Origin: Gammaproteobacteria bacterium
GTDB taxonomy: Bacteria; Pseudomonadota; Gammaproteobacteria; BTQY01
Direction of reading: 5' to 3'
NCBI GenBank assembly: GCA_036986115.1
Contig: BTQY01000006.1
Span: forward strand, 150-64,149
Length of the DNA stretch: 64,000 bases
The position numbers were made by a program, and so were the translations under genes. The notes under the pieces were generated by a model, which ran no database searches, was not told the DNA's origin, and saw only the letters and a list, made by a program, of their open reading frames with translations. Each line of letters opens with the position of its first letter. The stretch's first letter is position 1. Below are positions 200 through 62,476 of this stretch, one piece after another.

Positions 200-1627
200 A
201 TGTCTGACATAAGATACTTTCTCACAAGCCGTGTCATCCCGCTGGGTATCGTTGGACTCATCCTGATCTCGATTATAATCACCACCAACAGGGACTCAAC
301 TCTTGAACAGATTCTGAAATCCGGACAACTCGTGATGGTAACTCGCAACAGCCCCACTACCTATTATGAGGGCCCATCCGGTCTGCTCGGTCTGGAGTAT
401 GACGTGGCAAAACGGTTTGCCGATCATCTTGGTGTCTCACTTAACATCATCACCACTGAGAACCTGCAGGAGATGCTCGATATGGTGGTCTCCAAGGATG
501 TAGATTTTGCTGCAGCAGGTCTAACGGTCACTGACGAACGAAAAAAACTGGTGCGCTTTAGCGAATCCTACCAGAACGTTACCCAGCAGATCATTTACCG
601 GACAGGCAGTGAGCGCCCACGAAAAATTGAAGATTTATTAGACAAGCAAATTGAAGTCGTCGGCAGCAGCAGTCACGCCGAAAGGCTTGCTGAATTATCC
701 CGGGAATACCCAAAGCTGCAATACACAGAAAACACAGAACTGGGAAGTGATGACCTGATGCGCCTGGTATGGGAACAGGTCATCGATTATACGGTGATGG
801 ACTCTAACGAGTTTCTGATGTCGCGTCGCTTCTATCCTGAACTACGTGTCGCCATGGATATCAGTGAACCCCAGCAACTGGCCTGGGTCTTCCCCTATGA
901 TAAAGATGACAGCTTATACAATGCGTCGATAAATTTTATCCGGCAACTGAAAAAATCCGGTGAGATGCAAAAGCTGCTTAGCAAGTATTATTCTCACGTG
1001 GAGAATTTTGATTATGTTGGCGCGCATACCTTCATGTTTCATATTGCAGAACGCCTCCCCAGGTATATCGAACTGTTTAAGGCTGCTGCCACAGAATATT
1101 CTCTTGACTGGGAATTACTCGCTGCGATTGGATACCAGGAATCGCACTGGAATCCGAAAGCGCGATCACCGACTGGCGTGCGTGGAATTATGATGCTGAC
1201 CATGAATACGGCAAAATATCTGGGCATTAAAAACCGCCTGGATCCAGAACAAAGCATCATGGGTGGTGCAAAATTTATCAACAATCTTAGTCGCCGGATC
1301 CCCGCAGAGGTCAAGGAGCCCGATCGCACCTGGATGACTCTGGCCGCCTACAATATTGGCCGCGGTCACCTTGAAGATGCACGCCTTATTACTGAGACTC
1401 GTGGGGGCGACCCGGACAGGTGGGCGGATGTAAAGGATAATCTGCCATTACTGGCGCGTAAAAAATGGTATAAACGCACCAAACATGGCTATGCCCGTGG
1501 CTGGGAGCCAGTCAGCTACGTGGAGAATATTCGTAGCTACTATGAGATCCTGCGCTGGAATACGCAGAAAGAAACTGATACTGAAGAGCCACCTGCTGCA
1601 CTGAGTATCGATTCCCCGGCGCTTTGA
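200..1627 (+). CDS. mltF: membrane-bound lytic murein transglycosylase F (periplasmic solute-binding-like domain + SLT domain)
   Basis: 475 aa; N-terminal TM/signal; SBP_bac_3-like region; C-terminal SLT motif ESHWNPKARSPTGVRGIMMLT. Confidence 0.85.
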   Translation: MSDIRYFLTSRVIPLGIVGLILISIIITTNRDSTLEQILKSGQLVMVTRNSPTTYYEGPSGLLGLEYDVAKRFADHLGVSLNIITTENLQEMLDMVVSKDVDFAAAGLTVTDERKKLVRFSESYQNVTQQIIYRTGSERPRKIEDLLDKQIEVVGSSSHAERLAELSREYPKLQYTENTELGSDDLMRLVWEQVIDYTVMDSNEFLMSRRFYPELRVAMDISEPQQLAWVFPYDKDDSLYNASINFIRQLKKSGEMQKLLSKYYSHVENFDYVGAHTFMFHIAERLPRYIELFKAAATEYSLDWELLAAIGYQESHWNPKARSPTGVRGIMMLTMNTAKYLGIKNRLDPEQSIMGGAKFINNLSRRIPAEVKEPDRTWMTLAAYNIGRGHLEDARLITETRGGDPDRWADVKDNLPLLARKKWYKRTKHGYARGWEPVSYVENIRSYYEILRWNTQKETDTEEPPAALSIDSPAL

Positions 1628-1699
1628 AATAACATTGGAACTCTGTGTATAACAATTATTGAGAAGAGATCTACCACGGGGTGATTTTTATTACAACTA

Positions 1700-11613: not shown

Positions 11614-12135
11614 TCAGGACTTCCTGCTTTTGTCGTCAATTACAATGTTGCAGGGTGTATTACTGTTGCGATGGTCAGCACTTGCATTTTGTGTTGTCGT
11701 ACTGCCACGAACACCCTTTTTCACAGTTTGGTCATGCATACCGTTTTGTGTGATCTGTCCATGCATTCCATTCTGTGTGCTTTGCCGGGTGGGTTGTCCC
11801 ATCATGCCGCCCTGCGTGGCCTGTCCGTGCATTCCATTCTGCGTGCTTTGCCGGGTGGTTTGTCCCATCATGCCACCCATCATACCGCCCTGTGCGGGTT
11901 GTCCCATCATGCCGCCCTGCGTGGTTCTCCGGGTGGTTTGTCCCATCATGCCAGCCTGCGTGGCCTGTCCGTGCATTCCATTTTGTGTGGTTTTCTGGGT
12001 TGTTTGTCCCATCGAACCACCACCATGATGGTCGTCACTGTGTCCGGTATTTTCTGCTAAGGCCACTGATCCGACTGCCAGGCCTAAACCGGCAACTGCG
12101 CCGATAAGATATGCAGATAATGTTTTTCTGTTCAT
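11614..12135 (-). CDS. periplasmic methionine-rich tandem-repeat protein (putative Cu(I)-binding, PcoE/CopK-like in composition)
   Basis: Signal peptide MNRKTLSAYLIGAVAGLGLAVGSVALA; His-rich HSDDHHGGG; at least 6 degenerate repeats of MGQ[TP]T[RQ]xxTQNGMHGQATQ[AG]GMMGQ. Confidence 0.7.
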   Translation of the reverse strand: MNRKTLSAYLIGAVAGLGLAVGSVALAENTGHSDDHHGGGSMGQTTQKTTQNGMHGQATQAGMMGQTTRRTTQGGMMGQPAQGGMMGGMMGQTTRQSTQNGMHGQATQGGMMGQPTRQSTQNGMHGQITQNGMHDQTVKKGVRGSTTTQNASADHRNSNTPCNIVIDDKSRKS

Positions 12136-13062: not shown

Positions 13063-14456
13063 TGCGTTTGTTACCGCAATCATTGTTCGGCCGGCTGGCA
13101 CTTATCTTGTTGTCCGGCTTGTTGCTGGCGCAATTACTAAGTACCCTGTTGCAGTTTCACGATCGTGGTCAACGGCTGTTTCAGGCCAGCGGCATGCAAA
13201 GTGCGGAACGCATCGCCGAGATCGTTCGCCTGCTTGATGAAGAAGACCTTGTAGACAGGCAACGGCTGGTCGCCATACTGAATGTCCCGCCATTAAAAGT
13301 ATCGTTAGCTACACCGGTTTGGCCAGACCAGCAACCCTTCATTGAAGAATCACCCAGCACTGAATTTCGTAATCGTCTGCAAGGCCTGCTGGGCAATCGT
13401 TATCCCATACATGTTGCCGTTAGCGATCAAACCGTGAAGAGTACTCTGAATGAAGACGGCGGCCACATGATGAATATGGAAAACATGGGAATGGGGGTGG
13501 GCATGACCGCGCCAGAGGCGCTGGTATTTCTTGCCCAGGTACAATTAGATGATGGCACCTGGGTGACATTTGAAAACCGGATTGATGATGAGATTTTCGC
13601 AAGCTCAACAGCGCTGTTAATAAATCTGGCAGTATTAATTATTATCGTGCTGTTGGTGTCATTGATTGCCGTGCGTCTGGCAACCCGGCCACTGACGTTG
13701 CTGGCAAAGCAGGCCGATAAGCTCGGCAGCGACATTAACCAGCCGCCCATGGCGGAAACTGGCTCGACTGAAATGCGCCACGCCAGCCATGCCTTCAACA
13801 CGATGCAAAGCCGGCTACAACGCTTTATTGAAGACCGAAGTCTCTTGCTGACTGCTATCTCGCACGATCTAAAAACACCGATCACACGCATGCGCTTGCG
13901 CGCCGAAATGCTTGATGATGCCGAGCAACGCGATAACTTCACTCGTAATCTTGATGAGATGCAGGCCATTGCAAGTGAAACACTGGATTTTTTGCGTGCC
14001 GACGATGCCCGTGAAAACGTACAGGCTGTCGACATCTGTATGCTTTTGGAGACCATAAAAGATGATGCTGCTGAACTTGGTCAAAAAGTTGAGATTGAAC
14101 ATTGCCAGTTAAACCCCTACCCGGCACGACCGCAGGCATTAAAACGTTGTATTGTTAACCTAGTTGAGAATGCCCGCAAATATGCCGGGAATGCTGTTAT
14201 AACTGCCCGTGAAAGTGACACCGCAGTATTGATTAGCATTTGTGATTCCGGGCCGGGTATTCCCGAACAACAGCTCAAGAGTGTCTTTGAGCCGTTCTTT
14301 CGTCTGGAGACATCACGTAGTCGCAAAACCGGTGGCACCGGATTGGGCTTGAGCATTGCACGCAATATTGCGCTGTCACATGGCGGCGATTTACAACTTG
14401 TCAATCGCAAGGAAGGTGGACTCAAGGCCACCCTGACATTACTGCTCCACACATAA
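13062..14456 (+). CDS. EnvZ-family sensor histidine kinase with a Met-rich periplasmic loop
   Basis: 2 TM helices; periplasmic GGHMMNMENMGMGVGM; HAMP; H-box SHDLKTPITRMRL; N/G1/G2 boxes (NLVENARKYAG, DSGPGIP, GGTGLGLSIA); TGATG overlap with the regulator gene. Confidence 0.9.
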   Translation: MRLLPQSLFGRLALILLSGLLLAQLLSTLLQFHDRGQRLFQASGMQSAERIAEIVRLLDEEDLVDRQRLVAILNVPPLKVSLATPVWPDQQPFIEESPSTEFRNRLQGLLGNRYPIHVAVSDQTVKSTLNEDGGHMMNMENMGMGVGMTAPEALVFLAQVQLDDGTWVTFENRIDDEIFASSTALLINLAVLIIIVLLVSLIAVRLATRPLTLLAKQADKLGSDINQPPMAETGSTEMRHASHAFNTMQSRLQRFIEDRSLLLTAISHDLKTPITRMRLRAEMLDDAEQRDNFTRNLDEMQAIASETLDFLRADDARENVQAVDICMLLETIKDDAAELGQKVEIEHCQLNPYPARPQALKRCIVNLVENARKYAGNAVITARESDTAVLISICDSGPGIPEQQLKSVFEPFFRLETSRSRKTGGTGLGLSIARNIALSHGGDLQLVNRKEGGLKATLTLLLHT

Positions 14457-24727: not shown

Positions 24728-24989
24728 AGTTATATTCAAACCTCATCACAAAATAAACTGATAAAAAAACTTTGATTCATCCCTGAAAGGAATCCATCAA
24801 AGCTTCCCTGTTTGATTAATAGTGGTATCAGACCCTGAGCGATGCCGGACACATAAAAATTCCCTTATATTCTAACGTTTTGGCACGATTTGAACAATCA
24901 TTACTGGTATTTCGCGGCCATCACAGCCTGGTGGCGAAATGCTCAAATTGTGGGGTATATAAGGGTTTTTAATTTAAGATATCGGCAAC

Positions 24990-25520
24990 GAAGGCCGGTG
25001 TCAGTACAGCTGGATTCCGGGCCTCCACTCCGTTTCGCCCGGAATGACGGCATTGTGAGCCCGGATCCTCATTATAATCAACACATTGGATGTTATTTGC
25101 TTTTATTTGCGGACTAACATCATTTCTTCGGGATCAGGCAAGATCCTATTGAGCCGACAACAGGTCATTCCGCTCCACTCGTCATTCCGGTGCGCCCGAA
25201 CGAAGTGACAAAGGTCGCTCTCGCGCTGTCGCTACCGGCATCCTGCCTCATGCGACACTAGTACATCCCTGTACGTCGTCCATGCGCTCCGCGACATTCG
25301 TACATCCTGTACATCATGCCCTTGGGGTATGCGAATATCCGTGTCATTCCGGGCGAAGCGTAGCGCAGACCCGGAATCCAGTTTATTAAATCCAATCTAA
25401 TACTGGATTCCGGCCTTCGCCGGAATGACGAATTGATCAGAGATTCCTAAGTCATTCATTTTATTAGATTCTATTTGTGCTTTATTTGCGTTCATTTGCG
25501 GACTAAATAATATAAGCCGT
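24990..25520. repeat. repeat-dense intergenic region: CCGGAATGAC/GTCATTCCGG palindromes, TATTTGCGGACTAA (x2), and GTCGCTACCGGCA + TCCTGCCTCATGCGACACTAGTACATCCCTGTACGTCG module
   Basis: Four copies of the CGGAATGAC core in alternating orientation; the 38-bp module at 25241-25278 recurs at 42873-42910 (2 mismatches). Confidence 0.7.
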
Positions 25521-25526
25521 TGCTCG

Positions 25527-25727
25527 CTAATCCCGCTCATCTATCCAGGCGGCCTGTATGGCCTCAAGGATCTTTTCCCCGCAGTGCTGCGGCTCGTCAT
25601 CAAAATCCGCTAATGCCTGCACCCACTCGCACAAATCCGTGAAACGCACATATTGCGGATCGATTTCAGGGTGCTTTTCATCCAGTTCGATGGCGATGTC
25701 ATGCACGTCTATCCATTTCAAACCCAT
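25527..25727 (-). CDS. iscX: Fe-S cluster assembly protein IscX
   Basis: MGLKWIDVHDIAIELDEKHPEIDPQYVRFTDLCEWV is close to E. coli IscX/YfhJ. Confidence 0.9.
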   Translation of the reverse strand: MGLKWIDVHDIAIELDEKHPEIDPQYVRFTDLCEWVQALADFDDEPQHCGEKILEAIQAAWIDERD

Positions 25728-32628: not shown

Positions 32629-33444
32629 CTAGACAGAGCTGATCTCTTCGGCGTCCTCGTCGAGGTCAGCTTGCGGAGGGTCATCGAGCTTGCATGATTC
32701 GTCCAGCTGGGGCATCGAAATATCACTAAATTCTACGTCTATGCTCTTGATTGCCTTACACATTTTTTCCATACGATCGTCCATGATCTGGATATGATCG
32801 AGCATGGCATTAATCGCATGGGCCACCGGGTCAGGCATATCGCGACTGGTTCCATAGGCATCAAAGCCGATACGTTTGGCAAACGCCTGGCGGCGCTGGC
32901 CTTCCTCGGTTTGTTCATCTGTTGCCCTTACGTTGCCATGCACCAGCCGTCCCGGTACCCCGACCACCGTCGAACCAGCCGGAACCGACTTGACCACCAC
33001 CGCATTAGAACCGATGCGCACCCCTTCTCCCAGGGTTATCGGGCCCAGCACCTTGGCACCGGCACCGACCACCACATCGTTTTCAAGGGTCGGGTGACGC
33101 TTGCCCTTCTGCCAGCTGGTGCCGCCGAGGGTAACGCCATGATATAGCGTACAGTCGTCACCGATCTCGGAGGTCTCGCCAATCACGACACCCATACCAT
33201 GATCGATAAAGAAACGCCGCCCGATAATGACGCCGGGGTGAATTTCAATACCGGTGAACCAGCGTGACGCTGTGGCCAGCATCTTGGCAATCCATTTGAG
33301 CTTGCGACACCAGAGCCAGTGCGCCAGCCGATGCCACAACACAGCGTGAAAGCCCGGATAGGTGGTAAACACCTCAAAGGCATTTCGCGCCGCCGGGTCG
33401 CGATCGAAAACACAATTGATATCTTCTTTAATCCTGTCAAACAT
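32629..33444 (-). CDS. cysE: serine O-acetyltransferase
   Basis: [21 protein letters not shown]...; hexapeptide repeats [11 protein letters not shown]. Confidence 0.9.
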
Positions 33445-33510
33445 GGTTATTCTATGGGTCCAGTACTAGTGGTGGATACCCGAATACTATAAAGGATAGT
33501 AATCAAGCGT

Positions 33511-33660
33511 ACCACGGGGAACACCGGGAAGACACGGGGAAAGAAATTTAAAATATAGCTGTTTATTCAAAATTCTTCTACCTTTTTTCAAAAGGAATAA
33601 TACTCAATCATTCACATTGTCAACCCTGTGCTCCCCGTGTCTTCCCGGTGTTCCCCGTGG
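33511..33660. repeat. MITE-like element: 30-bp terminal inverted repeats (CCACGGGGAACACCGGGAAGACACGGGGA) flanking an AT-rich core
   Basis: Left arm 33511-33540; right arm 33632-33660 in opposite orientation; same motif recurs at 61184-61396 and partially at about 1668-1685. Confidence 0.75.
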
Positions 33661-33705
33661 TTAAATCTTTTTTGTAATATCATCTGACTTCGTCATTTAC
33701 GAATT

Positions 33706-34437
33706 TTATGGTTTACGGGCCTTCTGCGCGCTGGTCAGGATGCCACGCAGAATATTGACTTCCATTTTATCCAGATGGGTGCGATTGAATAATCGTTTCA
33801 ACCGCCGCATTAATTGCTTTGGATTATCCGGATCCAGAAATTCTATATCAATAAGTGCTTCACGGAAATGTTTATACATTCGCTCCAGTTCATCGGCCGT
33901 CGCCGGTTCATCATCATTATTACCCTGGACGATGGCCATTGAATCATTTTCCTGCACCATCAGCATGCGGATCTCATACACCAGGATCTGTACCGCAGTG
34001 ACAATATTCAACGCCGGAAAATCTGCTACGCTCGGGATGTTGACCAGGTAGTTGCAACGCTCCAGTTCATCATTTGTCAGGCCGGTTCGTTCACGACCGA
34101 ATACCAGTGCCACTGGCGCTTTATCCGATGCTTCAAGTGCGATGCGTGCACATTCGCGCGGCATAACCTGAGGCCAGCTGACCCTGCGCAGTCTGGCGCT
34201 GGCGCCAAAAACATAACTACACCCTTTGAGCGCAAGATCCAGATCATCACAGACCACGGCTTTTGCCAGGACCCCGGATGCACCGGAGGCACGTGCCGTT
34301 GCATCGGCGGCAGGAAATTTCTTCGGCTCGACAAGATACAGGGTTTCGAGCCCCATGTTCATCATGGCCCTGGCAGTACCGCCAATGTTTCCCGGGTGTG
34401 AGGTATTCACCAGAACAATGCGTATATTCGATAACAT
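33706..34437 (-). CDS. trmJ: tRNA (cytidine/uridine-2'-O)-methyltransferase TrmJ (SpoU family)
   Basis: MLSNIRIVLVNTSHPGNIGGTARAM... aligns to E. coli TrmJ. Confidence 0.9.
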   Translation of the reverse strand: MLSNIRIVLVNTSHPGNIGGTARAMMNMGLETLYLVEPKKFPAADATARASGASGVLAKAVVCDDLDLALKGCSYVFGASARLRRVSWPQVMPRECARIALEASDKAPVALVFGRERTGLTNDELERCNYLVNIPSVADFPALNIVTAVQILVYEIRMLMVQENDSMAIVQGNNDDEPATADELERMYKHFREALIDIEFLDPDNPKQLMRRLKRLFNRTHLDKMEVNILRGILTSAQKARKP

Positions 34438-34590
34438 AATGCCAAGCATACTGGATGTACGCAGTGATGTGAAAAGATGGCTGAAATGGCAGTGATACTT
34501 GTTTTCTCGGGACTGGCTCTATACACTTGCGCCGCAATACCGCTCTTTAAAACCTGCTAACCATTTATACCGCTGAGGATTCAAATCGTC

Positions 34591-37700: not shown

Positions 37701-38035
37701 GGAAAACCCATACTTCCGGTCCGGGAACCCTTAACTATTACAAGTATTATGTCGGCAACAAAAGCCAATTCAACGAATATAGACTAAAAATCCACAGGTT
37801 GTTTTATAGCGATTAATAACTGTTTCAATACAAAGCATACCAGGACAAAAATATTTGTCCGTAGAGGGCGCAAAGGTTTTATTGAACACTGCGCCTTCGG
37901 CACAGTCATCGATAACATGCCTTTCTCTGTGCACCTCTGCGGTTAAAGACCTGAGCCAATAAAACATTAATACTAAAGTCTTGCACTTAAAGTGCATGGT
38001 TTTAAATTAGTGGCCTAACAAGTCTGGAGTGCGAT

Positions 38036-42425: not shown

Positions 42426-42531
42426 TCATTCCTGATAGCGCCAGATTCTGTTAGGTTTCGATGCGCTCTGCCTATCAACCTACGTTAAGGCACTATGCAC
42501 CTGAAGTGCAAGACTTTAGTATCAATGTTTT

Positions 42532-42760
42532 ATTAGCTCAAATCTTTAACCGCAGAGGTCGCAGAGCTACACAGAGAAAAACATGTTATTGATTACCGTG
42601 CCAAAGTCGCAGTAATCAATAAAACCTTTGCGTACCTCTGCGCCCTCTGCGACCTCTGCGGTAAAATGTTTTTGTCTCAGCGTACTTCGTTGGGCTTCGC
42701 GTTGCTCTGCGCCAACCTACGTTGAGATTATTATTTGCGTTGTCGCTACCGGCAATCGCT
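42532..42760. repeat. intergenic repeat element of the CCTCTGCGGTTAAA / TTAGCTCAAATCTTTAACCGCAGAGGTCGC family, with flanking CAACCTACGTTRAG direct repeats
   Basis: Inverted ACCGCAGAGG...CCTCTGCGGT arms; related copies at 50510-50632, 44331-44384 and 37926-37958; CAACCTACGTT at about 42474 and 42712. Confidence 0.65.
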
Positions 42761-42879: not shown

Positions 42880-43956
42880 TCACGCGACACTAGTACGTCC
42901 CTGTACGTCGCATTTGCGGACTTGTTTTTCTATCTGTCGCGTAATCAACATTGCATCGCCATAACTGAAGAAACGGTAGTCGTTATCTACCGCATGAGTA
43001 TATGCGTTCATTATATGATCATGGCCAGCAAATGCACTGACCAGCATTAGCAGGGTAGATTCCGGTAAATGGAAATTGGTCAGCATTGCATCAACCACCT
43101 GGAATTCAAAACCGGGGTAAATAAATATATCGGTCTCGCCTGCAAACGGAGCTAGTCCTGTGTCGGTGACCGAAGACTCCAGTGCACGCGTCACTGTGGT
43201 CCCCACCGCAATCACCCTGCCGCCCTGCTGCCTGGTGCGGGCAATATCATCACATACTGTTTGTGACACAGTGATTCGTTCACTGTGCATCCTGTGGCTA
43301 TTAATATCATCCACCCTGACCGGCTGAAACGTTCCCGCACCAACATGGAGTGTAATCATTGCAGTATTTATTCCCGACTCTTTCAGGCGTTGCAGCATTT
43401 GTTCATCAAAATGCAGGCCGGCGGTAGGTGCGGCGACAGCACCATCATGTCTGGCATAGACCGTCTGGTAACGATCACGATCATCGGCATTGTCCTGTCG
43501 GGCAATATAGGGTGGTAATGGGACATGCCCTGCCTCATTCAGAATACTGAGGACGTCACGTGGATCATTAAACTGAAGCTCAAACAGGTCTGCTTCACGG
43601 CCCAGCACCTCCACCCTGATACTATTCTCGAGCAACATACGGCGTCCTGTCCGTGGTGATTTACTTGCCCTGATATGTGCCAGCACCCGCTTGTTGTCGA
43701 GGACCCTTTCCACCAGTACCTCGACCTTGCCGCCGCTGTCCTTTTCTCCCAGTAATCGCGCCGGAATCACCCGGGTGTCATTAAATACCAGCAGGTCACC
43801 ACGGCATAACAAGCCAGGCAACTCACCGAATATCCTGTCCTCAACCATGCCACTGTTTCCATCCAGCATCAGCAGGCGGCTGGCGCCACGTTGTTCCAGT
43901 GGATACTGGGCAATGCAGCCCTCCGGTAAATGATAGTGAAAATCGCTTAACTTCAT
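42880..43956 (-). CDS. queA: S-adenosylmethionine:tRNA ribosyltransferase-isomerase (start at [13 protein letters not shown]; the longer ORF 5' extension is probably untranslated)
   Basis: [19 protein letters not shown] aligns with the E. coli QueA N-terminus; the last ~30 bp of the ORF lie inside a dispersed repeat module. Confidence 0.9.
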
Positions 43957-44216: not shown

Positions 44217-44383
44217 TCTTATACTGTGAAGCGATTGACAAATGCCAGCCCGCAAATGAACGCCGATCTACACAGGTTTGTCATAAAACGCAAAGGGAAA
44301 ACATATATTGTACAGAGGACACAGAGTTAATAATTCAATGTTCTTTTTCTCTGTGACCTCCGTGTCCTCTGTGGTGAATAATC

Positions 44384-50509: not shown

Positions 50510-50632
50510 TTAGCTCTTTCGAAATCTTTTCTACCGCAGAGGTCGCTGAGGTACGCAGGGCTGTGCGGGGTAGTATGGCCCACTTTCCTTCCTCTGTGTC
50601 CCCTGCGTTCTCTGCGGTTAAATATTTTTTTC
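50510..50632. repeat. REP/MITE-like element of the CCTCTGCGGTTAAA family between convergent ppc and panD (probable bidirectional terminator)
   Basis: TTAGCTC...ACCGCAGAGGTCGC...TCTCTGCGGTTAAATATTTTTTTC; homologous to 42532-42680. Confidence 0.65.
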
Positions 50633-56168: not shown

Positions 56169-59100
56169 TCAGGCCGTAGTAACCACCACGGGTTTCTTTC
56201 CCAGGCGCAGCAAGCTGGGTAATAGTATCAGTGTGAACACCGTACTGACCGACATGCCGCCGACGATCACGGCGGCCAGTCCCCGGTAAAGTTCCGTCCC
56301 GGTCCCCGGTATCAACAATAATGGCAACATACCAAATATACTGGTCAATGTACTCATCAATATTGGACGAAGCCGGACGCGCACCGCCAGTTCCACCGCA
56401 TCACGGCGGGACAGCCCCCGTCTTTCACTGGCCCGAGTCTGGTACACCAGCAGGATGGCATTATTCACCACCAGGCCGAGCAGGATAATAAAGCCGATCA
56501 TTGTCAGCAGGTCCATCGGCTGGAATGATGCCGGTAGTCCCGCCAGTGGTGCGATGCTCCGCAGAAAAAAATCGGTTATCAACAATGCGATGACCCCACC
56601 CACCGTGGCCAATGGCAAGGCCAGTATCACCAGGACACTATCGAGAAAGGATCGAAACAGTGCGCTCATCAACAGATATAATATGATCACCGCCAGAATA
56701 AAACTTTCACTCATGCTGCTCAGGGCCATCTCCAATTTATCCGCGGTACCGCTATAACGGATTTCACCATCGGCTGATAACATATTGCTTACCGTGGGTT
56801 CGACTTTTGTCTTCAGGATCTCCAGCCCTTCTTCCAGCGACATCCCCTCGGGCAGTTTCACCTGCAAGGTAACGGTACGGCGTCGATCCAGTCGGCGCAC
56901 CTCGTTGGGTCCGGCCGTACGTACCACATCGACCAGCTCACTGAGCGGCAATATGCCACTGGGAGTGGCCAGCGGAATTGCGGCCAGCTCTTCCGGCGTC
57001 TGCCAGGGTTCGGTCCGCACAATAATGTCCAGACGTTGTTCGCCATCAAAGTAGTCCCCGATATACAGGCCCTGCCCCAACGCCCGGATGACCTGGGCCA
57101 TGGTCTTGCGGTCCCAACCCGCCTCGGCAATGCGTCGTTCATTTGGCACCAGTCGCAGCTCAGGGGCCGCCAACTGCAGGCCCGGAAAGGGCCGTACGCG
57201 CGCACCGGGTATTGCCTGCTGCAAACGAACAAAGGCTACCTGCGCCGCCTTCAACAAGGTCTCCAGATTGCGCCCCTGGATATTCATATCGATACTGCGA
57301 CCGCCGCCAAAGCCACCGAACAGTGACGCCTTGAAGGCAAATGCAATGGTGTCAGGAAATCCACCCACGGTGTTATTGATGATGGGGACCAACTCGCCAA
57401 CACGATTCGGATCCCTGGTGACTGCCCCCATAAACACGCCTTGTGGAAAGGCAACAAAGAAATAATGTTCCACCTCAGGTTCTTTCTCGCCAGCCAGATA
57501 GGGCGCCATGTCATCCACAATCACCTGACCCATTTCCCGCTCTATGGCATTGATGCTCATCCCCGGCGGCGGATTAATAAAGGTAAATACCAGGTTACGG
57601 TTACCTTCCGGCAGGTAATCTGCATTGGGCCGCAGCAACAGTGTTAATGTCAGTGATATGAATACCAGTCCGACAATCCAGGCATAACGCCGCGCGGGGG
57701 TATCGGTCAGCAGCATAATCTTGCCGGTAATGCTGTCCCACCATTTTTCATGCGGGTCATGCAGATCCAGTTTTGCCAGCCACTGGCTGGCGGCCGTGGG
57801 TACTATGGTCAATGCCACCACCAGCGAGGCCGCTACGGCCACGGCGATGGTCAGTGCCAGATCGGCAAACAACTGGCCTGCCTCATCCTTCAGAAAGACC
57901 ACCGGTAAAAAGATCGCCACGGTGGTCGCTGTTGACGCGAGCAAAGCGCCCCATACCTGTGATGTCCCCGTCAGGGCCGCCTGCTCAGCCTGCTCGCCAG
58001 ACTCACGCAGACGTACAATATTTTCCAGTACCACAATCGCGGCATCCAGCACCATACCAACGGCAAAGGCAAGCCCGGCCAACGAGATCACATTCAGGGT
58101 GGCACCGCTTGACTTCATCACAATAAACGCCGTCAGTAACGATAGCGGAATCGCCAGCGCGACAATCAGGGTGGCCCGCAGACGCCGCATAAACCACCAC
58201 AACACCCCTACCGCCAGTAAAATACCGAGCAACAGATTGTTACGCAACAATTCTATCGCGCTATAGATGTAAATAGTCTCATCGTAGACCTGATTGATTG
58301 TCAGGTTTGCCCTTTTAAGGGGACCTTCCCTGAGTTCTGTGACCGCCTGCTGCAGACCTTCCATCACCTCCAGCACATTCACTCCGCTCTCGCGGTGTGC
58401 ATTGACCGCGATCGCCAGCCGTCCCTTTGTCAACACGAAATTGGTCCGGTCGACCATACGGCGCTCAACCACGGCAACATCACGCAACAACACCGGACGA
58501 TTGTCTCGCCAGTCGAGGATCAGGTCCCCCAGTTCCCTGGCCGCAAATTTTCCGGCAAAGCGAATCGAGTAACGTCGCTTGCCAACATCCGCCGTACCGG
58601 CAGATACATCTTCATTACCGGCAGCACGTCTGGCCGCCACTGGCAGTTCAATTCCGAGGCTCGCCATCTTGTAGGGATCGAAGCTAATGCGGATCTCCCG
58701 TTCACGTCCGCCAAATACCTCTGATAACGCCACCCCGGGAACCCGCTCAAAACGGGTCTGCACAATTTCCTCGACATAGTCCTTGTAGGTTGCTATGTCC
58801 CTGTCGTTCCCTGCTGCGTTACTGATAATAAACCAGGCTATCGCCCGACTATCCCCACCGACATTACTCAATACCGGTTCCTCAGCATCCTTCGGATACT
58901 GGGGTACACGATTCAGGCGGTTCAGGACTTCCAGCAAGGCCCGCTGGATATCAAAACCCACGACAAACTTGACCGTAATGACACCTCGACCACGTTGCGC
59001 CCTGGAGACAAGCTCCGTCATCCCGGGTAAGCCGCGCAACACCTTTTCCTGCGGCTCAATGATCTCTGCCTCGACTTCTTCCGGGGCAGCAGCACGCCAG

Positions 59101-59249
59101 TTGGTGTTAATGGTGATCTCCGGGACTTCGACTTCGGGAGTCAACTGGACCGGCAGGCGTTGCTGGCTCAGGATACCAAACAACACGACAAGCAAAACGG
59201 CCACTATGGCCGCCACAGGATTGCTGAGTGACAGTCTGGTCAGATTCAC
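56169..59249 (-). CDS. RND-family efflux transporter permease (AcrB/CzcA superfamily)
   Basis: 1026 aa; 12 TM with two large periplasmic loops; operon with the periplasmic adaptor. Confidence 0.9.
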   Translation of the reverse strand: MNLTRLSLSNPVAAIVAVLLVVLFGILSQQRLPVQLTPEVEVPEITINTNWRAAAPEEVEAEIIEPQEKVLRGLPGMTELVSRAQRGRGVITVKFVVGFDIQRALLEVLNRLNRVPQYPKDAEEPVLSNVGGDSRAIAWFIISNAAGNDRDIATYKDYVEEIVQTRFERVPGVALSEVFGGREREIRISFDPYKMASLGIELPVAARRAAGNEDVSAGTADVGKRRYSIRFAGKFAARELGDLILDWRDNRPVLLRDVAVVERRMVDRTNFVLTKGRLAIAVNAHRESGVNVLEVMEGLQQAVTELREGPLKRANLTINQVYDETIYIYSAIELLRNNLLLGILLAVGVLWWFMRRLRATLIVALAIPLSLLTAFIVMKSSGATLNVISLAGLAFAVGMVLDAAIVVLENIVRLRESGEQAEQAALTGTSQVWGALLASTATTVAIFLPVVFLKDEAGQLFADLALTIAVAVAASLVVALTIVPTAASQWLAKLDLHDPHEKWWDSITGKIMLLTDTPARRYAWIVGLVFISLTLTLLLRPNADYLPEGNRNLVFTFINPPPGMSINAIEREMGQVIVDDMAPYLAGEKEPEVEHYFFVAFPQGVFMGAVTRDPNRVGELVPIINNTVGGFPDTIAFAFKASLFGGFGGGRSIDMNIQGRNLETLLKAAQVAFVRLQQAIPGARVRPFPGLQLAAPELRLVPNERRIAEAGWDRKTMAQVIRALGQGLYIGDYFDGEQRLDIIVRTEPWQTPEELAAIPLATPSGILPLSELVDVVRTAGPNEVRRLDRRRTVTLQVKLPEGMSLEEGLEILKTKVEPTVSNMLSADGEIRYSGTADKLEMALSSMSESFILAVIILYLLMSALFRSFLDSVLVILALPLATVGGVIALLITDFFLRSIAPLAGLPASFQPMDLLTMIGFIILLGLVVNNAILLVYQTRASERRGLSRRDAVELAVRVRLRPILMSTLTSIFGMLPLLLIPGTGTELYRGLAAVIVGGMSVSTVFTLILLPSLLRLGKKPVVVTTA

Positions 59250-59411
59250 CTAGGGAACCTCTGATTTATTCTGGACGAAGCAGATTGCATCTAAAATGTT
59301 CAGATTCAAGGCGCGAATCGCACGTAATAGCTGGCTATTGCGAAGGTTCGCAACGCAGAAGCTGGATATTCTAGAGGTGAGATGCAAGTTCATGAATAGA
59401 TCAGAGGTTCC

Positions 59412-60592
59412 CTAATGCTTACCTGCATTTATCCCGGGAAGGATCACCACTGTCTGACCCGCGCGAAGCCGCTCACCACCACGGGTAACCACCCGGTCAC
59501 CGGCCCTGATATCACCGACCACTTCGATATAGATACCTGAGGCAATCCCTGTCCTGACGCCAACCATTTCAGCCTTGTTGTTACTATTGATACGAAACAC
59601 GCGAGTACCTTCCCGCCGCAGCACCAGCGCGTCACGTGGCACTGCAATCACCTTTCGCGACAGCGCTGAGGGTATCGCAACACGCAGAGTCTGACCAGCC
59701 GGCCAGACGGCCCCCTTCAGCAGCAGCCTCAACTCATACAGACGGGAGCGATCGTCACCTACCGGCACTATCGTACGTACTGTCGCTGTGCCCTTCTGTT
59801 CGCCTGACTTCAATAGCAGTTCCATTCCAGGACGGATAAAGCCAAGAGAACTGGCCGGTACCCAGGACTGTACCTCCAGCGTGCTGGTATCCACCAGGCG
59901 CACGACCGATTTACCGCTTTTCGCCCATTCACCGACCTGCATCAAACGTTCAGTAATAACGCCATCAAAAGGTGCCACCAGGCTGGTCCTGGACAGACGT
60001 TCTTTATTAACATTGACCCTTGCCATCGCAGCGCGTCGCTCACTCCGGGCAACAGAGCGATTGGATATCGATTGATCCAGTCTGTTTCTGGCCGCATTGT
60101 TTTTTCTGGCCAGACGACGCAGGCGTTTTACCTCGGCGGTAAAGAAAGTAACCCTGGCCTGTTCCCGTTCCACATCTGCCAGGCTTTCTGCCAGCTCTTC
60201 CTTGATAAGGGTGTCATCAAGTCGGGCCACCACATCCCCCTTCTTCACTACCGTGCCGACCCCGACAACCCTGACTAGCCTGGCTTCCACTTCTGCCGCC
60301 AGACGGGCATCTTCAACGCTGATGACCGTGCCGGAAAACCATGCAACAGGAGCGAGTTCCTTTTCCTGCGCATCGGCAACCACCACCTTGGCCGCAGGGG
60401 GCCCCTTGGGGACGGCAGCAGGCACCTGGCCCACAAGCACCACCGGCAGAAGTAATGCAGCGCATAGTTTGAACAGATTTCTCGGTAACACAGGTCGTCC
60501 TTTATTATTTAGAATATTGCGGTTTAATGATAATAACAGCACAGGCAGGTAAACTAGCGGGAAATCAGCCTGTGAGCAAGCCATGATCATGT
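59412..60592 (-). CDS. RND efflux periplasmic adaptor (membrane fusion protein); start codon uncertain
   Basis: HlyD-like lipoyl/beta-barrel regions (GTVISVEDARLAAEVEARL...); signal-like LLLPVVLVGQVPAA. Confidence 0.8.
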
Positions 60593-60650: not shown

Positions 60651-61139
60651 GTGAATAAAAACCACAGTTCAGGGCCCGAAGATACCCTGAATAAAAAAGG
60701 GCTTAGCGAAGCGGCAACTGAAACAAATGTCACCCATTGCAGCCTGTGGCGTCGACTGGCCGCGATAGCCTATGACTTGTTGTTACTCATCGCTATCTTA
60801 TTCGTTGCCACGATTCCATTGGTGGCCATCAACCGCGGACACAGTATTGTCGAGGGCGATCCGCTATTCACCCTCTACCTGACTGTTGTAATATTTCTAT
60901 TCTATGGCTGGTTCTGGACACACGGTGGACAGACCCTGGGAATGCGTACCTGGCGAGTAAAGGTCCAGACCCGTGATGGCAAGACGCTTACATGGGGCCA
61001 GGCCTTTGTCAGGTTCATTGCTGCCGCAGTCTCCTGGCTGGTCTTTGGCCTGGGTTTTGTCTGGTCTTTATTTGATAAAGACAAACTGACCTGGCACGAC
61101 CGCTTCTCGGAGACCGAGCTTATAGTCTTGCCAAAATAA
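60651..61139 (+). CDS. RDD-family membrane protein
   Basis: RRLAAIAYDLLLLIAILFVATIPL...; 3 TM; small size. Confidence 0.6.
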   Translation: MNKNHSSGPEDTLNKKGLSEAATETNVTHCSLWRRLAAIAYDLLLLIAILFVATIPLVAINRGHSIVEGDPLFTLYLTVVIFLFYGWFWTHGGQTLGMRTWRVKVQTRDGKTLTWGQAFVRFIAAAVSWLVFGLGFVWSLFDKDKLTWHDRFSETELIVLPK

Positions 61140-61183
61140 AAGAAATAGACAGTCGCCTCTGACGTCTTGTAAAGCAAAAACAC

Positions 61184-61396
61184 TACCACGGGGGACACGG
61201 GGTAAGATTATATTCATTGCGGGACAGGGTTGTTAACCATAGAATTCCCCGTGTCTTCCTGGTGTTCCCCGTGGTTTGGTTGGTTATTTGGGGTCAGGGT
61301 TATTTGGGGACACTGGGTAAGATTATATTCACTGCGGGACAGGGTTGTTAGCCATAGAATTCCCCGTGTCTTCCCGGTGTTCCCCGTGGTTTGGGT
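61184..61396. repeat. tandem duplication (two copies of about 115 bp) of GGTAAGATTATATTCAYTGCGGGACAGGGTTGTTARCCATAGAATTCCCCGTGTCTTCCYGGTGTTCCCCGTGGTTTGG
   Basis: Copy 1 at 61201-61278 and copy 2 at 61316-61394 differ at 3 positions; shares the CCCCGTGTCTTCCCGGTGTTCCCCGTGG arm with the 33511-33660 element. Confidence 0.8.
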
Positions 61397-61408
61397 TGAT
61401 AAGCAGGG

Positions 61409-62476
61409 TCAGTAAACCCGCCGCATCATTATCACGGCAATAACGAGGAATACCAGTGATGGTGCCAGTGCGCTCATGACTGGATTGAGATCGTAGACCA
61501 CCCCAAGATTACTGAAACCCTTGTTAATGATATTAAAGCCAATACCAAATAACGTGCCCACCAGGATCCTTGCACCAATACCCACTGAGCGTAGCGGTCC
61601 GAATACAAACGGTGCTGCCAGAAATATCATCACCGCCATTGAGATAGGTGCAAAAATTTTAGTCCAGTAGGCCAGTTGGAACTTCTCAGCTGTTTGTCCG
61701 TTACTTTTCAGGTAATTGATGTATTGATACAAGTTCCATATCGACATATGTTCAGGTCGAACGATGACCGCATCCAGTAACCCGGGATCAAGTAACGTGT
61801 CTTCCAGTACCGCCCTTGCTACCCGTTGGCTCTTCACTCCCTGTGAAGTAATGCGACTCTGAACGATATCCTGCAGTATCCATTTGTCATCCTCATAGCT
61901 GGCACGTTTGGCATAGGTCGAAATCCGTAACCGATGCTGGTCATCAAATTCATAGATATAGATATCAGCGATATCACCACCATACTTGATGTCCCTGATA
62001 TTGATATAACTGATTCCGTCTCGTGCCCAGAAACCGTATTTGGTTTGCAGGGTGATTTGATCCGATATCTTTACCGAGCGCCGGTTCTCTGCTGCCTTTT
62101 CTGTAAAGGGTGCAATTATTTCTCCTATCAAGACCACCACCACAAGCATCAGGACGCCAACCTTCATCAGGGAACCGACAATGCGCATCAGTGATACACC
62201 CGATGCACGCATGACGGTCAGTTCACTGTTACTCGCCATTAATCCGAGTCCAACGATTGAACCAAGCAAGGCCGCCATCGGGAAAAAGGTATATATACGT
62301 TTTGGCAAGCTCAGGAAAAGGTATATAAACACCTCGGTCATGTTGTACTGTCCCTGACCGACTTCATCCAGTTCCCTGAGTAATGCCAGAAACAAGTCAA
62401 AGGCCAGCAATATACTGATGGCCGCCAGGATACTGATAGCAACCACCTTGCCAATATAGCGATCAAGAATCTTCAC
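61409..62476 (-). CDS. lptG: LPS export ABC transporter permease LptG
   Basis: MKILDRYIGKVV N-terminus; 6 TM with periplasmic beta-jellyroll; downstream of lptF with 4-bp overlap. Confidence 0.9.
   Translation of the reverse strand: MKILDRYIGKVVAISILAAISILLAFDLFLALLRELDEVGQGQYNMTEVFIYLFLSLPKRIYTFFPMAALLGSIVGLGLMASNSELTVMRASGVSLMRIVGSLMKVGVLMLVVVVLIGEIIAPFTEKAAENRRSVKISDQITLQTKYGFWARDGISYINIRDIKYGGDIADIYIYEFDDQHRLRISTYAKRASYEDDKWILQDIVQSRITSQGVKSQRVARAVLEDTLLDPGLLDAVIVRPEHMSIWNLYQYINYLKSNGQTAEKFQLAYWTKIFAPISMAVMIFLAAPFVFGPLRSVGIGARILVGTLFGIGFNIINKGFSNLGVVYDLNPVMSALAPSLVFLVIAVIMMRRVY

Follow-up and report, generated by a model that had tools for sequence, protein, structure and literature searches.

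A short palindromic repeat, probably of the MITE/REPIN kind, between trmJ and cysE of an uncultured deep-sea gammaproteobacterium

In the metagenome-assembled genome BMS9Abin26, an uncultured gammaproteobacterium (GTDB order AKS1) recovered from a massive sulfide deposit in the deep sea (PMC11427306), a perfectly inverted pair of GC-rich arms lies between trmJ and cysE. Is this structure a copy of a mobile repeat, a functional signal of the transcript in which it lies, or something else? We traced it through the 64-kb stretch of DNA that was analysed (64,000 nt, the window), through contigs of related organisms and through public sequence collections. A preliminary description of the window had called the element MITE-like, perhaps mobile or REP-like, and had proposed that it may act as a terminator or mRNA stabilizer.

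The arm, ACCACGGGGAACACCGGGAAGACACGGGGA, was located at 33511-33540 on the plus strand by a pattern search allowing up to three mismatches, with its exact reverse complement at 33632-33661. The 30-bp perfect terminal inverted repeats and the ~90-bp AT-rich core originally described are real, but the element measures 151 bp (33511-33661), one base more than the 150 bp first given. Read on the minus strand, which codes for trmJ and cysE, it runs 5'-(TTTA)ACCACGGGG...CCCCGTGGT(ACG)-3'. We refer to this copy as A1 and to its kind as A-type. The gene names assigned earlier also hold, for CysE and TrmJ here and, at a second locus discussed below, for RDD (60651-61139, plus strand) and LptG (61409-62476, minus strand). 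The features of the trmJ-cysE locus are:

33511-33661, minus strand: A1, complete A-type palindromic element of 151 bp (pattern search, inverted-repeat search, RNA folding)
33511-33540, plus strand: left arm of A1, G/A-rich on this strand, not self-complementary
33541-33631, no strand assigned: core of A1, 91 nt, 27% GC, unrelated to the core of the 61.2-kb copy
33632-33661, plus strand: right arm of A1, exact reverse complement of the left arm (pattern search)
33706-34449, minus strand: trmJ, with its stop 44 nt upstream of A1 along transcription
32629-33444, minus strand: cysE, with its start 66 nt downstream of A1 along transcription

The arm is 67% GC, and 22 of its 30 positions are purines. 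After ACC it consists of three direct, purine-rich subunits of ~10 nt, CACGGGGAA / CACCGGGAAGA / CACGGGGA, spaced 9-11 nt apart. No ORF of at least 40 aa is present in the core, nor is any promoter-like or terminator-like site.

The arm is not confined to this locus. It recurs between the convergent RDD and lptG genes, at 61246-61275 with one mismatch (CCTGG for CCGGG) and at 61361-61390 with none, so that four arms within one mismatch are found at two loci 27.7 kb apart. None was found in 100 dinucleotide-preserving shuffles, in which nothing matched the arm within three mismatches. The multi-locus repeat family postulated earlier is real, with arms at two loci and a fragment at a third position:

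61185-61275, minus strand: A2a, second A-type element, 91 bp
61191-61412, no strand assigned: tandem duplication, 115-nt unit, 1.9 copies, 89% matches (Tandem Repeats Finder)
61361-61390, plus strand: A2b, complete C-arm in the duplicated unit, with the same sequence as the A1 arm
1671-1681, plus strand: solo end fragment CTACCACGGGG, identical to 61183-61193
200-1627, plus strand: mltF-like gene

In A2a an 18-nt G-arm (61185-61202, ACCACGGGGGACACGGGG), from which the middle subunit is missing, is followed by a 43-nt core (61203-61245) and a full C-arm (61246-61275). The tandem duplication carrying the arm twice, previously placed at 61201-61394, spans 61191-61412 in our analysis and copies most of A2a together with the lptG-proximal flank. 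Its units are 95.5% identical over the central 89 nt and differ at several positions; in the second unit the partner G-arm of A2b has shrunk to GGGGACACTGGG (61306-61317). By blastn-short, the copies at 33.5 kb and 61.2 kb have only the 31-nt arm in common; their cores are unrelated. A 9-mer present in both cores (ACAGGGTTG) was considered as a sign of kinship and dropped as not significant. The 61.2-kb core also holds a strong promoter-like site on the minus strand (TTAACA-18-TATAAT, 11/12 matches, 61207-61236), and the second unit another (CTAACA, 10/12, 61322-61351, minus strand); both point to the 3' end of the RDD gene, that is, antisense.

The fragment after mltF, noted in the preliminary description at about 1668-1680, is present as 11 nt at 1671-1681. 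It lies 43 nt past the mltF stop, counted to CTACC at 1671 (44 nt when counted to TACC at 1672), and 18 nt ahead of the stop of a convergent deaminase gene. Simple arithmetic predicts ~0.03 occurrences of any one 11-mer in 128 kb (both strands). The fragment is probably what remains of an A-type end.

Hairpins with related ends but different arms occur elsewhere in the window. The motif [AT]ACC[AG]C[AG]G[AG]G is found 11 times, each time at an end of an intergenic hairpin repeat, whereas shuffles lead one to expect 1.9 ± 1.3. The sister types are:

42549-42663, plus strand: C1, C-type sister hairpin, arms ACCGCAGAGGTCGCAGAG..., (T/A)ACC ends
50533-50618, plus strand: C2, C-type sister hairpin between ppc and panD
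37869-37945: partial C-type copy
44310-44375, plus strand: F-type sister hairpin (ACAGAGGACACAGAG ... CTCTGTGACCTCCGTGTCCTCTGTGGT)

One end of these elements reads (T)TAACC or AACC and the other TACC, and the right flank of C2 (GGTTAAATATTTTTTT) resembles the A1 flank GGTTAAATCTTTTTT. F-type arms (ACCACAGAGGACACAGAG) are found both in the window (44310-44375), where a leader motif, GCCCGCAAATGAACGC, precedes the hairpin at 44248, and on contig L008 of a relative (13963-14028). Across the seven elements of the A, C and F types, 5/12 outermost stem pairs have changed on both sides and 95% of cells are paired. Compensated differences of this sort are produced by inverted-repeat elements; they show that the hairpin or inverted-repeat layout is what is conserved, and are no proof of selection on RNA structure.

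The surrounding DNA is rich in other repeats. A leader motif, GTCCGCAAAT(G/A)AACGCAAA..., occurs in the window at 25114, 25503 and 42921 (all minus strand) and at 44248 (plus strand), as well as at L008 13852, L009 1952, L010 1145 and L005 1376. It directly follows genes (queA, a tRNA, and, in a second relative, trmJ and lptG) and is itself followed by differing modules of B-, D- or F-type, forming a mosaic repeat system like that of BIMEs and NIMEs. The last ~20 codons of the queA ORF enter such a leader/D-type repeat (42880-42940), and the annotated queA C-terminus is probably repeat-derived read-through. A gene-free stretch of 913 nt (24740-25652) consists almost wholly of repeats: three hairpins of the form CTGGATTCCGG...CCGGAATGAC (25010-25048, 25343-25381 and 25404-25430), which we take to resemble Neisseria dRS3, a D-type unit (25241-25278) and two leader motifs. 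An inverted repeat of ~140 nt (37869-38000 and 42492-42632, 85-90% complementary, 4.5 kb apart) flanks secF-secD-yajC-tgt, with a C-type arm in each copy, and could promote inversion of the intervening genes. At 11737-12021, 66-nt (x3.7) and 39-nt tandem repeats lie in a 173-aa ORF (11614-12135, minus strand) with no Pfam match, which may encode a repetitive protein or be a non-coding array.

Is the A-type element an old, fixed part of these intergenic regions? The preliminary description had proposed a comparison with orthologous regions of relatives, and this shows that both occupancy and internal structure vary among close relatives, which argues against an ancient fixed structure. Relative 1 (JGI 3300003885, contig L008; LptG 95% and RDD 87% identical), which comes from a different metagenome, has alignable flanks at the RDD-lptG site and carries in the same place a full 30-nt G-arm identical to the window arm (L008 5245-5274). 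Its core is different and holds a solo, nested F-type arm, its C-arm is truncated (CCCGTGTTCCCCATGG), and the tandem duplication is absent. Since position and arm are the same, the element was in place here before the window organism and relative 1 diverged. A different arm segment has been lost since then in each of the two lineages; slippage from one ~10-nt subunit to another, along with nested insertion and duplication, is consistent with these losses. On the pairwise alignment the arm is identical at 30/30 positions between the species versus ~81% in the adjacent non-repeat spacer, which points to a conserved master sequence, recent copying or homogenization. Relative 1 thus adds one A-type locus in 15 kb to the two loci and one fragment of the 64-kb window. 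The lptG call of relative 1 (L008 5404-6423, 339 aa) diverges from the window protein after residue 307 while the DNA of its 3' end aligns well, probably owing to a frameshift or an assembly error in the contig. Four copies of a ~45-nt unit (aggcatatctcaatgtaggttggcgcagagcaacgcgaagcccaac) also stand in tandem between valS and the leader/F-type module of relative 1 (L008 13650-13830).

In relative 2 (ERR10503190/ERR10503256; LptG 92% identical), no A-arm is present within 204-215 nt of the lptG stop, and a different repeat, beginning GTCCGCAAAT, lies there instead. At trmJ-cysE, the window spacer is 261 nt long; subtracting the element leaves 261 - 151 = 110 nt. Three distant relatives (CysE 70-76% identical), in which the trmJ-cysE-iscR-iscS order is the same, have spacers of 95, 78 and 97 nt. 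In relative 2 (TrmJ 88% identical) the 34 nt readable after trmJ do not match the window and are part of a different repeat, GTCCGCAAATGCGACGTACAGGG. The leader motif is present in relative 2 at both sites that hold A-type elements in the window. No clean empty A1 site was recovered, the contig of the only close relative ending 34 nt past the trmJ stop; a further sequence consulted (P0245) breaks off 20 nt past the RDD stop. Sampling of the lineage is thin, with the nearest TrmJ 88% and the next 65% identical, and identical IscR, TrmJ and CysE proteins come from the same sample only.

A gain of a different element can be read elsewhere in the window. An imperfect palindrome with 57-nt arms, of which the outer 15 nt are perfect (TAGGGAACCTCTGAT...ATCAGAGGTTCCCTA), lies at 59251-59414 between an RND pump gene (56169-59249, minus strand) and a membrane-fusion gene, and its end supplies the stop codon of the upstream gene. 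In relative 1 (L008 3480-3500) these two genes abut or overlap, and ~175 nt including the palindrome are absent. The palindrome is another MITE-like element and clearly polymorphic for insertion; compared with relative 1 it has been inserted here, so the lineage does gain such elements.

What would A1 do in RNA? On the minus strand it folds to -81.2 kcal/mol (z = -9.9) with a perfect 30-bp stem, and on the plus strand to -75.5 kcal/mol (z = -8.8), a very stable structure in line with the long hairpins anticipated from the GC-rich arms. The isolated arm folds no better than shuffles (z -1.4 and -0.5) and is not a palindrome. By eye, the arm and the next 12 nt on the minus strand (33620-33661), the mRNA-sense strand, contain four G-tracts, GGGG-6-GGG-7-GGGG-6-GGG, which fit the canonical G-quadruplex motif and would compete with the hairpin.

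The suggested terminator role has to be answered separately for the two loci. At A1 the minus-strand stem is followed by ACGCUUGAUUAC, not by a U-tract, and the loop is 91 nt long; the short loop and sense-side U-tract of an intrinsic (Rho-independent) terminator are both missing. A scan of 33300-33800 returned no terminator-like and no promoter-like site, and no cysE promoter was found inside A1 at 9/12 or more matches. The U-rich flank GGTTAAATCTTTTTT lies on the antisense side of both neighbouring genes. Termination toward trmJ/cysE is therefore unlikely, given the lack of a U-tract in the sense orientation. At 61.2 kb, the hairpin is followed in the RDD direction, and only in that direction, by the partial U-rich tail UUUGGUUGGUUAUUU. 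This hairpin with its UUUGGUUGG tail could help to end the RDD transcript, and a terminator or 3'-end role is plausible there. REPs stabilize upstream mRNA, and by analogy an mRNA-stabilizer or processing role of the A-type hairpin is plausible. RNase III acts on the stems of Correia RNA by cutting or binding them (PMC10969869, PMC2649163), and ERIC copies alter transcript levels (PMC10969869). Judged by these precedents, a trmJ-cysE read-through RNA with its 30-bp duplex would likely be an RNase III substrate or a barrier to 3'-exonucleases. A riboswitch or leader for cysE was discarded, as the same arm adjoins unrelated genes and relatives are without the element.

Public data place the family within a single lineage. 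The exact arm 20-mer CGGGGAACACCNGGAAGACAC was used as query against genome, metagenome and viral contigs. Among 185,579 species-representative genomes it has two exact matches (Streptomyces and Planctomycetota), neither with a partner arm, where ~1 is expected; among metagenome contigs it has one, inside a type I-E CRISPR array on a human-gut contig; and among viral contigs none. These three matches are due to chance. The metagenome scan missed the arm-bearing JGI contig L008, and the collection is thus incomplete for this purpose. A blastn search of the element (distant mode) against plasmids and phages had no hits other than short, AT-rich ones due to chance, and no papers containing the arm strings were found in the literature. 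With Rfam 15 only tRNAs pass the threshold in the window, with nothing at the 61.2-kb locus and, at A1, only sub-threshold plant microRNA hairpin models (20-35 bits vs 55-211 required), matches of a generic long-hairpin nature. A CRISPR remnant, considered for the likeness of GTGTTCCCCG to type I-E repeats, was dropped as coincidence. An integron attC site was excluded too: GTTAAAT fits GTTRRRY at one end, but the inverse core is missing from the other end, and neither a cassette array nor an integrase is present. The A-type family is restricted to one uncultured deep-sea gammaproteobacterial lineage.

We consider it reasonably probable that A1 is a copy of a non-autonomous selfish repeat of the MITE/REPIN kind, which would form a 30-bp RNA stem in the trmJ-cysE transcript. 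The A-type family would belong to a wider set of hairpins in this genome, each starting with (T/A)ACC followed by two or three ~10-nt purine-rich subunits. A conserved 'master' arm would be placed in intergenic DNA near the 3' ends of genes by a copying enzyme, presumably encoded elsewhere, that recognizes the arm or the folded hairpin. After that, copies would be eroded by slippage between subunits, by deletion, by sister repeats inserting into them and by tandem duplication. RNA polymerase reading through from trmJ would produce a transcript that folds as a perfect 30-bp duplex, and by analogy with Correia, ERIC and REP elements this likely RNase III substrate or exonuclease barrier would uncouple the trmJ and cysE mRNA levels and not terminate transcription; there is precedent for RNA effects of such repeats (PMC10969869, PMC2649163).

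Several other explanations have to be weighed against this reading. Assembly errors, whether chimeric joins or palindromic mis-assembly in the MAG, can yield perfect inverted repeats and tandem duplications, and the orientation of a 91-nt core between perfect 30-nt arms is ambiguous for k-mers of up to 31. Yet an independent Logan assembly of DRR500112 repeats both flank/arm junctions of A1 (L001, L002) and the entire 61.2-kb locus including its tandem duplication (L012), whose units show differences at several positions that a collapsed or expanded artefact would not have; and the identical arm stands at the orthologous site in an unrelated JGI metagenome. With junctions and duplicated locus reproduced independently, an artefact is very unlikely. 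A more serious competitor, although we regard it as unlikely, is a host-functional RNA 3'-end element, that is, terminators or stabilizers selected near gene ends and spread by duplication or recombination instead of transposition. All copies do lie close to stops (44 nt after trmJ, 44-45 after RDD, 18 after lptG and 44 after mltF), the flank of the AACC end is U-rich on the plus strand (GGTTAAATCTTTTTT at A1, GGTTAAATATTTTTTT at C2, GGTTTGGTTGGTTATTT at A2), which at A2 is the direction downstream of the RDD gene, and the arm is conserved at 30/30 positions between species. The same flank of A1, however, is antisense to both neighbours, the terminator scan of 33300-33800 was empty, and a 30-bp stem with a 91-nt loop is not the geometry of an intrinsic terminator. 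Relatives manage with spacers of 78-97 nt without the element, the lptG site of relative 2 is occupied by another repeat, and the loss of different arms in two lineages at a shared site suggests decay over selection for the stem.

The subunits themselves invite another explanation, in which the ~10-nt, helical-phase CACGGGGAA-like units are iterated sites for a protein and the hairpin is incidental. E. coli BIMEs are reported to bind gyrase, and gyrase, a nucleoid-associated protein or a regulator would be the candidate binders. Three direct subunits per arm at a spacing of 9-11 nt, a subunit number that varies between copies (2 vs 3) and sister families that keep the periodic layout with different bases are all consistent with such a platform, but we think it improbable. 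The arms are almost always inverted pairs with compensated differences, as expected of hairpin or terminal-inverted-repeat elements and not of simple operator arrays; the flanking genes do not share a function, and no candidate binding protein was identified. A further, combined proposal we hold to be doubtful. It would make the A, C and F hairpins an undescribed REPIN-like mobile class, with arms of ACC and two or three helical-phase subunits serving as multi-site platforms for a lineage-specific mobilizing enzyme, one enzyme paralogue per arm variant, and with co-option by the host as RNA processing or 3'-end signals. Were a mobilizer to be found that is distinct from RAYTs and known insertion-sequence transposases, subunit-built arms would be a new way of recognizing non-autonomous elements.

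Under the favoured reading one more family is unsurprising, since many bacteria have small palindromic repeats; its value is practical and local. Logan contigs terminate exactly at the perfect arms, and the repeats explain breaks in short-read assemblies of this uncultured sulfur oxidizer of the order AKS1. A-type repeats mark fast-changing intergenic sites and could serve in strain typing. The predicted perfect 30-bp RNA duplex that A1 puts between trmJ and cysE-iscR-iscS may alter the expression of cysteine and Fe-S cluster supply.

How does the family compare with known systems? The MITE label of the preliminary description stands as far as layout is concerned: A1 is small (151 bp, under ~500 bp), is non-coding (no ORF of at least 40 aa) and has terminal inverted repeats complementary at 30/30 positions. 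Beyond this it is a putative member of the class. The similarity between the loci does not span the whole element, only the 31-nt arm being common to both and the core of relative 1 being different again, and such differing cores are evidence against classical whole-element transposition. A target-site duplication cannot be demonstrated, as TA flanks A1, C1 and C2 at either end only after a shift of 1 nt and is absent at A2 and the F-type copies. Pfam identified no transposase or RAYT among 20 ORFs of the window. Spacer lengths and the occupancy of the lptG site by A-arms vary between relatives, and no precisely alignable empty site was found.

REPs carry a GT[AG]G head 5' of the palindrome. 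The A-type arms start with (T/A)ACCAC instead, and GTAG is found only outside the 3' end of some copies (A2, the 1671 fragment and C2). The arm alone is not the imperfect palindrome that a REP unit is (z -1.4 and -0.5), so that REP-like does not apply in the strict sense, but two conserved arms around a variable spacer are REPIN-like. In REPINs of Pseudomonas fluorescens SBW25, conserved inverted arms with a less conserved spacer form the replicative unit (PMC3116915), and by this definition A-type elements agree in having two highly conserved inverted units, a less conserved spacer (~70-110 nt in REPINs) and a long hairpin, predicted for ssDNA or mRNA. They agree further in being extragenic, in the presence of several sequence classes per genome, in decay to singlets and in tandem or clustered arrangements. 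Besides the non-palindromic unit and the missing 5' head, they differ in that REPIN spacers also pair whereas the A-type core is mostly unpaired and unrelated between copies, and in that no RAYT is present among the 20 ORFs of the 64-kb window. REPINs number tens to hundreds of copies per genome, and their cognate RAYT gene usually stands between such repeats; the window shows two A-type loci and one fragment. Given the non-palindromic unit and the lack of a 5' GT[AG]G head, we do not file the family as REPIN.

Correia elements (CREE) of Neisseria (PMC2649163, PMC10969869) are similar in being ~100-155 bp long, non-coding and intergenic, with terminal inverted repeats of ~26-30 nt, in being co-transcribed with their neighbours and possibly in TA at both ends. 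They are, however, conserved over their full length, with an IHF site and promoter-forming ends, whereas A-type elements are conserved in the arms only, occur in another host lineage and have a putative TA duplication. The A-type sequence is not known to resemble that of Correia. ERIC/IRU elements, known from Enterobacteriaceae and Yersinia, are likewise imperfect palindromes of ~70-150 nt in transcribed intergenic regions near the 3' ends of genes, and affect mRNA levels in an orientation-dependent manner (PMC10969869). ERIC is conserved in full length across many genera, whereas the A-type arm has chance-level 20-mer matches in 185,579 genomes.

E. coli BIMEs and Neisseria NIME/dRS3 are mosaic intergenic repeat systems. 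The modules of the present system are unrelated in sequence to BIME, NIME/dRS3 and BOX/RUP/SPRITE, and arms built of subunits are not described there. With these systems and with pneumococcal BOX/RUP/SPRITE (PMC10969869) it shares its modular nature, seen in hairpin modules A, B, C, D and F that combine with a shared leader, GTCCGCAAAT..., at the 3' ends of genes, and in nesting, with an F-type arm inside the A-type element of relative 1. The A-type family is a new example of a familiar kind of bacterial repeat, that of MITEs and REPINs, and not a new kind of system.
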